Shown here piece after piece: positions 7,738 to 55,067 of a stretch of 64,000 nucleotides of DNA. The stretch lies in NCBI GenBank assembly GCA_000092065.1, contig CP000594.1. One strand, written 5' to 3'. The translations under genes were made by a program, and so were the position numbers. The notes beneath the pieces are model-generated. The model ran no database searches. It was not told the DNA's origin and was given only the letters and a program-made list of their open reading frames with translations. This DNA is from Ostreococcus lucimarinus (Eukaryota). The first letter of the stretch is position 1. Each line of letters begins with the position of its first letter.

Positions 7738-8328
7738 CTATTTCGCGTGCGCGGTGAGCCATTTCAGGCACACGTCGATGTTTGTGGAATTCTTGCAACT
7801 CACGTTGTAGCAGCACACCTCCCTCCCGGTCGCGCGTTTCAGCTCCATCGCCTCCACCACGTCCTGCACGCGCACCGCGCTCTCTAAATCGCTCTTATTC
7901 CCGAGCACCAACAACGGAATCTCCCGCAGCGTCTCCCTCTTGAGCAACCCGTGCAGCTCGTTCCTCGCCGTCTCAAACAATTCCTTCGCCGCCGCATCCA
8001 CGACGTACACCACGCAATCCACGCCTCGACAGTACCGTTCCCACGTTCCCCGAAACCGTTCCTGTCCACCGAGATCCCACGTCTTCACGCTCACCCCATC
8101 CCTACGCAGTCTCCGCACGTTGAATCCCACCGTCGGAATCATATCCTCCTCAAACGTCCCGCCGCTCAGCGCGTCGATGAACGACGTCTTCCCGGCGTTC
8201 TGCAGCCCTGCGCGCGCGCGTTCGCGAAACGTCTTCGTCAGTCCCCGCGCGCGCGTCCCCGCGCCGTCCTCGCGCGCGATCGAATTCGTTTCGTCGCGAT
8301 TCAAATCAAAGTCCGACGCAACCGCCAT
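7738..8328 (-). CDS. ARL8: ARF-like small GTPase ARL8
   Basis: GLQNAGKTS, DMIPTVGFNVRRL, WDLGGQERFRGTWERYCRGV, LVLGNKSDL and CCYNVSCKNSTNIDVCLKWL align closely to ARL8. The N-terminal ~40 residues (MAVASDFDLN...) diverge from the family, so the start may be wrong or an intron may be unresolved. Confidence 0.85.
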   Translation of the reverse strand: MAVASDFDLNRDETNSIAREDGAGTRARGLTKTFRERARAGLQNAGKTSFIDALSGGTFEEDMIPTVGFNVRRLRRDGVSVKTWDLGGQERFRGTWERYCRGVDCVVYVVDAAAKELFETARNELHGLLKRETLREIPLLVLGNKSDLESAVRVQDVVEAMELKRATGREVCCYNVSCKNSTNIDVCLKWLTAHAK

Positions 8329-30317: not shown

Positions 30318-30596
30318 CGGCTCGGTCGGACGAGGACCGCTACACAGCGCAATTGGAGGTACTTTATGACCTCAGCGTTCATATTAGGACGGTGCGTGTA
30401 CCTATTTACCGGACGAGGACTGCGTCGTATCGGTAAACAGTGCGAGCGACTGACGCTTCAGTCGCGGTCGCGCGACGGACCCGTCGTCGCGCCGCGGCGC
30501 GCGCGACGGACCGCGAGCGAGGCGTCGTCCGTCGCTCGACGTCCGCGCGGCGTTCGCGCGCGCGATCGAGGCGCGCGCGCGTCGCGACGGACGACG

Positions 30597-52344: not shown

Positions 52345-53545
52345 CTGCGTTCGAAAATAAGAAGCGAAAAAGTGAAAATGTCAGTCTTCGTCCGCTCGCT
52401 CGTTCATCGTCTCAGAGAGTATGGTCACAAAATATCCACATTGGGTATTCGGTAAAGTTTTTGGGTTAAGGTTTTCATCTTCCTTGACGACGGCGCGATT
52501 GAAGTCGAAGAAAAACGAACGTCGAGAACGACGACGACGACGACGGATGTAGCAGGGGTTCTAGAGGCCGTTAGTCATGGACAGACACGAAGCCCGCTTT
52601 ACCCAAGCGTCACTCTACGGGCGTCTTCTGACGCGTCCGCGAATCTTTGAATCGCGGCGCGCACGTTCGAGATAAATCTCGCACCCAACATCGATCGAAA
52701 AGTAAAATGAATCCATTCAGCGGCGTGTCAGTGTTTCGTGAATCTTTTCACCGCGCCGAAACGCTCTAAAGGTGTCCTAAGATATATTGACGAAGTCATC
52801 ACCCACACCGCCGAAACGGCGAGAAAAACCAAACAAACAAACCAACGATCGCGTCAGGAATCAAAAATGATTTCGTTTCAAAGGAAGCCACTGAACACGG
52901 AGTCCTCAATTGAACTATGCCTTGATTCGAGCATCACCCGCGTCGTCGTCCGTCGTCTTCGTCGTCTTCGTCGTCGCTCGACGAGAGAAAAATCCACCCG
53001 CCGCTCGCGCGCGTTTCCAAGCCTCAGCTTAACGAGATTCACAAGTTTGATCGTCACCGAAATCAGATGGTACGGACAAGTGTGTCTCATCATCGGCTTC
53101 GCGCGCGCGACGGGCGGTCGCGCGTTTTCGTTTATCCGGCTAGCGTTCCGGCGTCGCGGGACCGGCCCGCGCGCCTCGCTCACGGTTCGCCGCGTCTCGC
53201 GCGTCGCTCGCGCTCTCGCGCCCGTCCCGAGAGACGCGCGCTCGATCGCGTGCGTCATCGCTCGACGGTGGTTTATCTCGGCGCGACCGAGCGCTGCGCG
53301 CGTCATGAGCGGGACGCGGCAGTGACTCTAGAGTGGATCGGCCTCTCGCGTTCTCGCGCGTCGCGTCGTCGTCGTCGTCGTCGTCGTCCTCGTCGCGTCG
53401 CGTCGCGTCGTCGCGCACCTCGTCGCGCGTCTCTCGCGCGCGCGTCTCGCGTTCGCGCGCGCTCGCGTCGCGCGGTGCGGTCGGGTCCGATTCGCCGCCG
53501 CCGCCGCACACCGCGACGCCGCGTCGACGCGCCGCGACGACGCGC

Positions 53546-54580: not shown

Positions 54581-54739
54581 TTAGATTGTGATATAACCAA
54601 ACGACGACACGACGTTAAAGAACCGTAACAAACATCGCGAGTACATGTCGCGACCCGGGGCGACCACGACTTATGTTCCCTCGTATAGTTGCGTCTTCTC
54701 ATAGTGATTTGAAGTCGTAAAGTATGAAAAAAGTTGGTG

Positions 54740-54837
54740 ATCAACAGGTCCGGAGTTCGATTCTCCGAGGCCCCTACGACAGACCCATACCTAGGGCACT
54801 CGGGGTCTTAGCTCAGTGGTAGAGCGGTTGACTGCAG
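54740..54837 (+). tRNA. Circularly permuted tRNA-Cys(GCA) gene: 3' half (nt 38-73, ~54740..54775) - 26-nt linker - 5' half (nt 1-37, ~54802..54837)
   Basis: 5' half GGGGTCTTAGCTCAGTGGTAGAGCGGTTGACTGCAG gives the acceptor 5' strand, D arm, anticodon stem 5' strand and loop C-U-G-C-A-G. Upstream, ATCAACAGGTCCGGAGTTCGATTCTCCGAGGCCCCT gives A38, the anticodon stem 3' strand (TCAAC pairs GTTGA), variable loop, T arm GGAGTTCGATTCTCC, the acceptor 3' strand AGGCCCC (pairs GGGGTCT with one G-U) and discriminator U73, which is typical of tRNA-Cys. Neither half is a complete tRNA in linear order. Confidence 0.8.
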
Positions 54838-54851
54838 TTAAAAACCATTTC

Positions 54852-54857
54852 TTTTTT
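54852..54857 (+). terminator. RNA polymerase III T-run terminator (T6) 14 nt downstream of the tRNA 5' half; identical copy at ~54942..54947
   Basis: ccatttcTTTTTTgg immediately follows each 5'-half copy. Confidence 0.6.
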
Positions 54858-54891
54858 GGACGTTTCTCGTCTCGACGCGTTTAGGGCACTC

Positions 54892-54927
54892 GGGGTCTTA
54901 GCTCAGTGGTAGAGCGGTTGACTGCAG
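54892..54927 (+). pseudogene. Tandem duplicate of the tRNA-Cys 5' half plus trailer (90-bp unit repeated), with no partner 3' half
   Basis: The unit tagggcactcGGGGTCT...ACTGCAGttaaaaaccatttcttttttggacgtttctcgtctcgacgcgt occurs twice in direct tandem (~54791..54880 and ~54881..54970). Only the first copy is preceded by a 3' half. Confidence 0.6.
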
Positions 54928-55067
54928 TTAAAAACCATTTCTTTTTTGGACGTTTCTCGTCTCGACGCGTAACGCGATAGACGTGCGCGCGCCGACGTGT
55001 CTTCGTGATGTCTTCGTCTAAATCAGCACTTCACTTTTTATCACAATAGTTGACGACGACGACGCGT

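Follow-up and report, generated by a model that had tools for sequence, protein, structure and literature searches.

Between two convergent protein-coding genes of the green alga Ostreococcus lucimarinus CCE9901, RRS1 and the gene for poly(A) polymerase (PAP), lies a gap of 487 bp in which the two halves of a transfer RNA (tRNA) gene for cysteine, with the anticodon GCA, stand in reversed order, the 3' half upstream of the 5' half, and a second 5' half follows further downstream. The gap belongs to the stretch of 64,000 nucleotides of contig CP000594.1 that was analysed as a whole and is called the window here. We read the locus as a functional permuted nuclear tRNA-Cys(GCA) gene of type II, with its junction between nucleotides 37 and 38, and as the very gene described by Maruyama and colleagues in 2010; judged from sequence, we put the probability of this reading at about 0.93. 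Both the permuted gene and its extra 5' half have been known since that report (Maruyama, Sugahara, Kanai and Nozaki, Mol Biol Evol 27:1070). The features of the locus are collected in the table.

Features of the tRNA-Cys(GCA) locus and its neighbours, in window coordinates
Feature	Position	Strand	Length, content or basis
3' half, tRNA-Cys(GCA) nt 38-73	54740-54775	+	36 nt, ATCAACAGGTCCGGAGTTCGATTCTCCGAGGCCCCT
Intervening linker, U73 to G1	54776-54801	+	26 nt, ACGACAGACCCAUACCUAGGGCACUC
5' half copy 1, nt 1-37	54802-54837	+	36 nt, GGGGTCTTAGCTCAGTGGTAGAGCGGTTGACTGCAG
Trailer UUAAAAACCAUUUC, then T6 terminator of RNA polymerase III (Pol III)	54838-54857 (T6, 54852-54857)	+	sequence
Leader, predicted to be removed in maturation	54720-54739	+	folds and comparison of alleles and lineages
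AT-rich upstream region with TATAG (54684-54688) and AAAGTATGAAAAAAG; candidate upstream Pol III promoter region	54680-54733	+	TATA-like sequence
Duplication unit 1	54791-54880	+	90 bp; last 11 nt of linker, 5' half, trailer, T6, 23-nt downstream spacer
Duplication unit 2	54881-54970	+	90 bp; second 5' half (54892-54927), trailer, T6 (54942-54947)
RRS1 (regulator of ribosome biosynthesis), 344 aa	53546-54580	+	open reading frame; exact protein match by name
PAP, 598 aa	55068-56864	-	convergent with RRS1; Pfam PAP domains

The permuted gene and its relatives

The 3' half comes first and is made up of the blocks ATCAAC, AGGTC, CGGAG, TTCGATT, CTCCG, AGGCCCC and T, which hold the 3' strand of the anticodon stem, the variable loop, the T arm with the B box, the 3' strand of the acceptor stem and U73; the CCA end is not encoded after U73. 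The linker that follows is free of any run of four T, so that no terminator separates the two halves, and it leads into the 5' half, whose blocks (GGGGTCT, TA, GCTC, AGTGGTA, GAGC, G, GTTGA and CTGCAG) supply the 5' strand of the acceptor stem, the D arm with the A box, the 5' strand of the anticodon stem, the GCA anticodon and G37. With the 3' half upstream, the spacer, and then the 5' half, all on the plus strand, the order is that of a type II permuted tRNA gene. Once the 5' half is joined to the 3' half, the resulting 72 nt are called by ARAGORN as tRNA-Cys(GCA) with a 7-bp acceptor stem, one G.U pair within that stem, and U73, and the structure of minimum free energy is the cloverleaf, at -26.9 kcal/mol. 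The break point falls at 37/38, since the 5' half ends in ...CUGCAG(37) and the 3' half begins with A38 followed by UCAAC. An initial annotation, made from the letters of this DNA, had proposed exactly this tRNA, with nucleotides 1-37 taken from downstream, nucleotides 38-73 from upstream and U73 as the discriminator; the ARAGORN call and the cloverleaf bear it out, and its placing of the break at the canonical intron site agrees with both the sequence and the published junction.

The published record describes the same gene. In Table 1 of Soma 2014 (PMC3978253), the O. lucimarinus Cys(GCA) gene is entered as type II, joined at 37/38, with 26 nt of intervening sequence and without an intron, and the spacer in the window has exactly these 26 nt; the same paper, citing Maruyama 2010, mentions an additional 5' half downstream of the gene. 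Organism, anticodon, junction, spacer length, lack of an intron and extra 5' half all coincide, and the window differs from that record in nothing; what the present analysis adds is that the duplicate is missing from near-identical wild genomes and that the wild alleles are variable. The annotation had also stated that permuted tRNA genes are documented in algae, including those of prasinophyte type, and the match of the locus to the published O. lucimarinus description agrees with this. For the green-algal permuted tRNAs as a group, circular intermediates, detected by reverse transcription PCR, and expression were reported by Maruyama 2010, as related in Soma 2014 (PMC3978253). Furthermore, the literature holds that permuted genes are required to complete the tRNA sets of Ostreococcus, and in later papers the annotation of Ostreococcus tRNAs includes permuted ones as a matter of course. 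The permuted gene may be the sole tRNA-Cys gene, a view that draws on these indirect statements in the literature.

Standard searches pass over the locus. ARAGORN, run on the unrearranged window, reported no tRNA in 64 kb, and Rfam gave no tRNA match (RF00005) at the gathering score and none at E<=10 over 54600-55000, which is what is expected of a permuted gene.

The comparison with related DNA carries the argument beyond a single locus. Environmental contigs, labelled here by L-numbers, were gathered by way of the exact PAP and RRS1 proteins and of more distant PAP homologues, and in 3 more divergent Ostreococcus lineages (PAP 71-80% identical) a permuted tRNA-Cys was found between PAP and RRS1. 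On one such contig (L012:6185-6298; PAP 80% identical), the permuted tRNA-Cys in the PAP-RRS1 gap has a 42-nt GC-rich linker and the reverse orientation with respect to PAP. Public metagenomes were scanned with the 5' half followed by a non-A base as the query; 25 loci from about 8 lineages came back, and all 25 were permuted. Among these lineages the leaders, the linkers (26-57 nt) and the trailers are unrelated; a run of four to eight T follows the 5' half at a distance of 6-30 nt in every lineage, and TATA-like elements 10-35 nt upstream of the 3' half are present in other lineages too. For the permuted tRNAs of green algae, the literature describes the upstream sequence as an "ambiguous AT-rich region".

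The loci yield 5 distinct virtual mature tRNA sequences, in which 100% of the stem cells are paired. Five pairs have changed on both sides, two of them in the acceptor stem, which unites the separated halves (3:70, G-C to A-U; 4:69, G-C to U-G), and three in the T stem (49:65, 50:64 and 52:62); one-sided or disruptive changes number 0. In the covariation measures, at most 3 of 500 shuffles reach any observed value and slid registers reach 0, and these measures are informative in the acceptor and T stems only, nucleotides 8-37 being fixed by the search pattern in the 25 scan loci. To judge from these sequences, the recurrence of the permuted arrangement in about 8 lineages, together with compensatory changes, is far more than chance would produce.

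As for the neighbours, the PAP protein matches XP_001421431.1 of O. lucimarinus CCE9901 exactly, and a nearby PDZ protein is likewise an exact match, to XP_001421430.1; the RRS1 gene, on whose counterparts in related contigs the Pfam family PF04939 was found, faces the tRNA locus with its 3' end. Elsewhere in the window, on the minus strand of the gap between the PDZ and RRS1 genes (53019-53098), Rfam places snoR117, a plant C/D-box small nucleolar RNA, at 43.4 bits against a gathering score of 42.

The second 5' half

From within the linker onward, the sequence repeats itself in tandem with a period of 90 nt (2.0 copies, 100% matches over 54792-54970). When the bounds of the unit are set by comparison with single-copy alleles, the first base (C versus T) is the only one in which the two units differ, and no difference separates the first 5' half from the second. 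The latter possesses an A box, and it is without a B box, a 3' half or an AT-rich upstream element of its own. The tandem duplication of a 90-bp unit with its own T6, the second copy being devoid of a 3' half, had been described in the initial annotation and is borne out.

We regard the second unit, on sequence comparison, as probably a very recent duplication that the reference strain alone has, or else, with less likelihood, as an artefact of assembly, because near-identical wild genomes do without it. Along 6 kb, the contigs L039, L040 and L041 agree with the window at 99.95-99.97% of positions, share its T stem and its leader, and differ from it structurally only in missing the second 90-bp unit. 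One of the three, L039, is an assembly at k=119, a setting at which an array of 180 nt with a 90-nt period has no repeated k-mer and so cannot be collapsed. Among the 50 environmental contigs with the gene, 0 have two complete 5'-half copies at one gene.

This last count, which includes the near-identical contigs, and the identity of the two copies save for their first base are also what one would expect if the second unit were an error of the reference assembly and not true DNA of strain CCE9901. We nevertheless hold such an error to be unlikely. The first bases of the units differ, and the T is the ancestral single-copy base, which fits a duplication followed by, or spanning, a polymorphism; moreover, a Sanger read, the kind with which the reference genome was sequenced, easily spans an array of 180 nt. 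The extra half has also been reported in the literature, though from the same reference assembly.

A very different age would follow if the second 5' half had been left over from the duplication by which the permuted gene came into being, and Soma 2014 (PMC3978253) indeed likens the extra 5' half to the proposed intermediate structure (an "intermediate stage"). Four observations leave very little room for such a history: the permuted layout is old, being common to about 8 lineages, all of which have just one 5' half at the gene; save for the first base, the two copies show no difference, even in 54 nt of flank that is not tRNA; the extra unit is missing from the wild genomes that resemble the window most closely, one of them the k=119 assembly; and the duplicated unit starts inside the linker, not at a tRNA boundary.

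Taking the second unit as a recent duplication, we consider it most likely to be neutral and to have no expression of its own, because it lies beyond the first terminator and has no partner 3' half. The two roles that had been suggested for it did not fare well. The copy is not a decaying duplicate, being identical to the first save for the unit's first base and missing from near-identical wild genomes; nothing supports its being an independent source of half-molecules.

Function, junction and maturation

It might be argued that the whole locus is a rearranged pseudogene, the debris of a broken tRNA-Cys gene from which no functional tRNA is made. The standard tools report no tRNA there, an orphan extra 5' half lies beside it, and some wild alleles are visibly disrupted or replaced. 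Debris, however, would hardly keep a permuted layout in about 8 lineages, at an unchanged genomic position in several of those of Ostreococcus, with the terminator and a G at leader position -3 conserved and with every stem substitution compensated, two of them in the acceptor stem that pairs the separated halves. The literature, too, treats the locus as a tRNA-Cys gene and permuted genes as needed for the full tRNA set. Within DNA of the O. lucimarinus type, the T stem occurs in three forms, CGGAG/CTCCG (the window and L039-L041), CCGAG/CTCGG (the group of L027) and CCGCG/CGCGG (allele B, described below), and these are connected by single compensatory swaps (window 54753-54754 and 54763-54764). 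In view of the covariation and of these swaps, the pseudogene reading is therefore rejected as highly improbable. The change is, as an observation in itself, unusually fast over this stretch of 17 nt, the DNA around it being about 99% identical or more.

Rfam's sole permissive match over the locus, to YrlA (RF02553; 54723-54857, 32.8 bits, E=1.9e-5, with a further 29.2 bits on the wild allele in L049), would make of it a Y RNA-like, YrlA-type non-coding RNA with a tRNA-like domain, but YrlA is a bacterial family and the host a eukaryotic alga, both scores fall below the gathering score of 69 (that of the window at less than half of it), the joined halves form a perfect tRNA-Cys with anticodon and discriminator, and the alignment rests on a T-arm-like, a second and then a D-arm-like hairpin, the order met in any permuted tRNA, so that the match reflects this order and the identity has next to no chance of being right. 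A split tRNA joined in trans was also considered and is unlikely, the halves being 26 nt apart with neither terminator nor promoter between them. A scan of the intergenic region for bacterial sigma-70 promoters and intrinsic terminators is uninformative for a Pol III gene.

How the two ends of the permuted gene are held for splicing is a separate matter. The initial annotation had seen that the leader before the 3' half is complementary to the trailer after the 5' half, and had supposed that the pairing could offer the tRNA splicing endonuclease a substrate of bulge-helix-bulge type. In the window allele the complementarity is present and, in a fold with the cloverleaf enforced, the leader AAAAAAG.UGGU pairs with the trailer ACCA...CUUUUUU. 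It does not, however, extend to the relatives: the A-run at 54727-54732 pairs with the U-run of the terminator in the window allele only, the wild leaders of the same species read AACCAAG or AAATACG so that the long helix is no longer predicted, and the leaders and trailers of other lineages are unrelated to those of the window. Much of the leader-trailer helix is thus simply an A-run meeting the U-run of a terminator.

The supposed substrate needs correction as well. For the strict motif, the canonical register would offer a central helix of C32:G, U33.G, G34.U and a C35xU mismatch, with no outer (h') helix. What recurs is much shorter. A G at leader position -3 (54737), able to pair with C32, is present in 8 of 8 lineages, the leaders being otherwise unrelated, and a partner for U33 stands at leader position -4 in 7 of the 8. 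The relaxed junction would accordingly comprise the anticodon stem, a 3-nt bulge (U,G|A38) and then the pair G(-3):C32. As studies on Xenopus and yeast have established, the eukaryotic splicing endonuclease needs an anticodon-intron pair for 3' cleavage; it places its 5' cut by measuring from the mature domain. On the comparison of these leaders, the conserved feature of the junction is the C32:G(-3) pair and not the long helix, and the predicted motif is a relaxed hBH with an anticodon-intron pair. Similarly, green-algal permuted junctions have been stated to "comprise a hBH motif ... at position 37/38" (Soma 2014, PMC3978253).

From these elements the following course of maturation may be proposed. 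Pol III would start in the AT-rich region upstream of 54740 and stop at the T6 of 54852-54857, producing one transcript with leader, 3' half, 26-nt linker, 5' half and trailer. The halves would then fold as a cloverleaf whose acceptor stem is closed by the linker, and the open anticodon loop, with leader and trailer attached, would mimic an intron-containing pre-tRNA. Guided by the mature domain and by C32:G(-3) with its 3-nt bulge, the tRNA splicing endonuclease would cut after G37 and before A38; tRNA ligase would join G37 to A38 and thereby give rise to a circular intermediate, from which RNase P and tRNase Z would excise the linker, CCA being added thereafter. The promoter, the enzymes acting at each step and the silence of the second copy are what we infer in this scheme.

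The proposed course has a counterpart in Cyanidioschyzon merolae (Soma et al. 2007, Science 318:450), in which the 3' half likewise lies upstream, the two halves share one transcript with a TATA-like or AT-rich element and a downstream T-stretch, and the splicing machinery produces a circular intermediate on which RNase P and tRNase Z act before CCA is added. The junctions of C. merolae are found at 20/21, 37/38, 50/51 and 59/60 with various bulge-helix-bulge forms, whereas the Ostreococcus locus, as in other green algae, has a junction at 37/38 with a predicted relaxed hBH only. An ordinary intron-containing eukaryotic pre-tRNA is also cut after nucleotide 37 and before nucleotide 38, with the mature domain used for measuring and with nucleotide 32 paired to the residue three before the 3' cut, which closes a 3-nt bulge; unlike there, the "intron" here consists of a free leader and a free trailer, and ligation would circularise the RNA. 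The split and permuted tRNAs of Archaea (Nanoarchaeum; Thermofilum pendens, Chan et al. 2011) resemble the locus in that halves out of order have paired flanks recognised by the endonuclease. They differ in having a strict bulge-helix-bulge, in the 59/60 junctions of T. pendens and in the separate halves of Nanoarchaeum, which are joined in trans; in Ostreococcus the halves lie 26 nt apart in one transcript and the strict motif is not formed.

Several points weigh against a functional gene of this kind. The evidence for functionality gathered here is at the level of sequence, and the circular intermediate and the expression come from the literature on the green-algal group. Our coverage of the genome is 64 kb, so a second tRNA-Cys gene elsewhere is possible, and a tRNA-Cys with a large D-loop intron, as seen in wild alleles, would escape the standard finders. 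The candidate promoter is an AT-rich, TATA-like stretch alone, with a spacing unlike that of other lineages. Neither by explicit register nor by constrained folding does the strict 3-4-3 bulge-helix-bulge form. To these may be added the chance, small as we judge it, that the second unit is an artefact of the reference.

Wild alleles and what they may mean

The wild alleles lie in DNA whose identity to the window is about 99% or higher, and they differ considerably in the tRNA gene itself. In allele C (L001, minus strand, about 7990-8090; L005, L008, L048 and L051; L042 is a variant), the variable loop of the 3' half contains a 53-nt insertion and reads ATCAAC[AGGTATGTATTTCATACTTGATCACCAAACCCTAAACCCTAAACCCTAAAACT]AGGTCCCGCG. 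The inserted stretch is built from inverted leader copies, of 13 nt and 11 nt, together with telomere-type repeats, (CCCTAAA)3. Since no helix bridging its ends was found, it looks, by its sequence, like a scar of break repair rather than an intron. The junction of the two 90-bp units in the window, which reads GCGTTTAGGGCAC at 54878-54887, holds one TTTAGGG, the complement of these CCCTAAA repeats; this is probably a coincidence, because TTAGGGC already occurs in the single-copy linker.

Other alleles have an insertion in the D loop of the permuted 5' half, between nucleotides 21 and 22. It measures 111 nt in L043:3778-3888, which equals L052:3776-3886, and 122 nt in L047:3776-3897. A more drastic change has taken place in L045:3680-4040 (equal to L046), in which the permuted 3' half and the linker are replaced by about 356 nt holding a conventional, contiguous tRNA-Cys(GCA). 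This gene, with the acceptor strands GGGTCGT/ACGGCCC, differs from the permuted gene in acceptor stem, D loop and T loop. Along with a canonical intron of 24 nt, it carries a D-loop insertion of 116 nt that is 92% identical to that of L047; ARAGORN calls the intron when this insertion is taken out. Downstream of it follow a T5, an AT-rich spacer, a 9-nt partial repeat GGGGTCTTA and the orphaned, intact permuted 5' half, a 5'-3'-5' layout that is like the intermediate proposed for the origin of the permutation. An exact scan of viral contigs for a source of this conventional tRNA-Cys gave no match.

In L015, which belongs to a distinct lineage with a 37-nt linker, two permuted tRNA-Cys copies stand 5.4 kb apart on the minus strand (9947-9726 and 4552-4238). 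One copy has a 113-nt D-loop insertion that starts with GA, and the other is intact. About 190 nt downstream of the intact copy lies a truncated extra 5' half, composed of the 3' part of the insertion, nucleotides 22-37 and the trailer, and on this account leftover pieces of the 5' half arise repeatedly.

The D-loop inserts start with GT (GA in L015), end with AG and contain a CTGAC motif and a pyrimidine tract, and a run of four T is absent from those of L043/L052 and L047. Introns of spliceosomal or introner type were considered on the strength of the GT..AG ends, the motif and the tract and were down-weighted, because the insert of L015 starts with GA together with a compensating change at -7 and because the ends fit a register resembling the bulge-helix-bulge in four variants, with 3-4 of the 4 central pairs; this reading lost further weight because the supposed "repeat copies" proved to be further tRNA-Cys 5' halves. 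Apparent compensation is seen at +2:-7 (U:A versus A:U) and in a change from U16 to G16 that repairs a UxU mismatch. By these sequence features, a tRNA intron of bulge-helix-bulge type is more likely, and it may be of a non-canonical kind that had not been listed for Ostreococcus before.

Allele B (L003, L004, L006, L034, L049 and L050) carries a 396-bp insertion with a G+C fraction (GC) of 0.49 just downstream of the 5'-half unit (L049:3862-4257). The match of 65 nt of this insertion to window 30346-30410, at 89%, points to a dispersed repeat or a mobile element. The same insertion is present in L002, where a Zip gene stands in place of RRS1 and no tRNA halves were found.

Taken at face value, these contigs suggest that the locus holds several architectures as alleles, namely the plain permuted gene, the gene with a D-loop intron, the gene with a telomere-repeat insertion and the conventional replacement; we advance this tentatively, giving it somewhat less than an even chance. 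The wild alleles with an insertion or with the replacement do not appear in the table of Soma 2014 (PMC3978253), which shows Cys(GCA) without an intron.

As permuted tRNA genes demonstrate, the order of an essential RNA gene can be scrambled in the genome and restored by the ordinary tRNA splicing machinery; such genes also have a bearing on the evolution of tRNA genes and of their introns. The gene in the window adds no new biology in itself; a reading of the raw sequence recovered a real feature that standard finders miss. The new points are the recent and private nature of the extra 5' half, the conserved C32:G(-3) pair and the structural polymorphism of the locus in the sea, and among the material assembled here the wild alleles alone are potentially new. 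If these alleles are real and expressed, they would offer a natural system for following the interconversion of conventional and permuted tRNA genes, and tRNA genes with large D-loop introns could lie unnoticed by the standard tools in genomes of this group.

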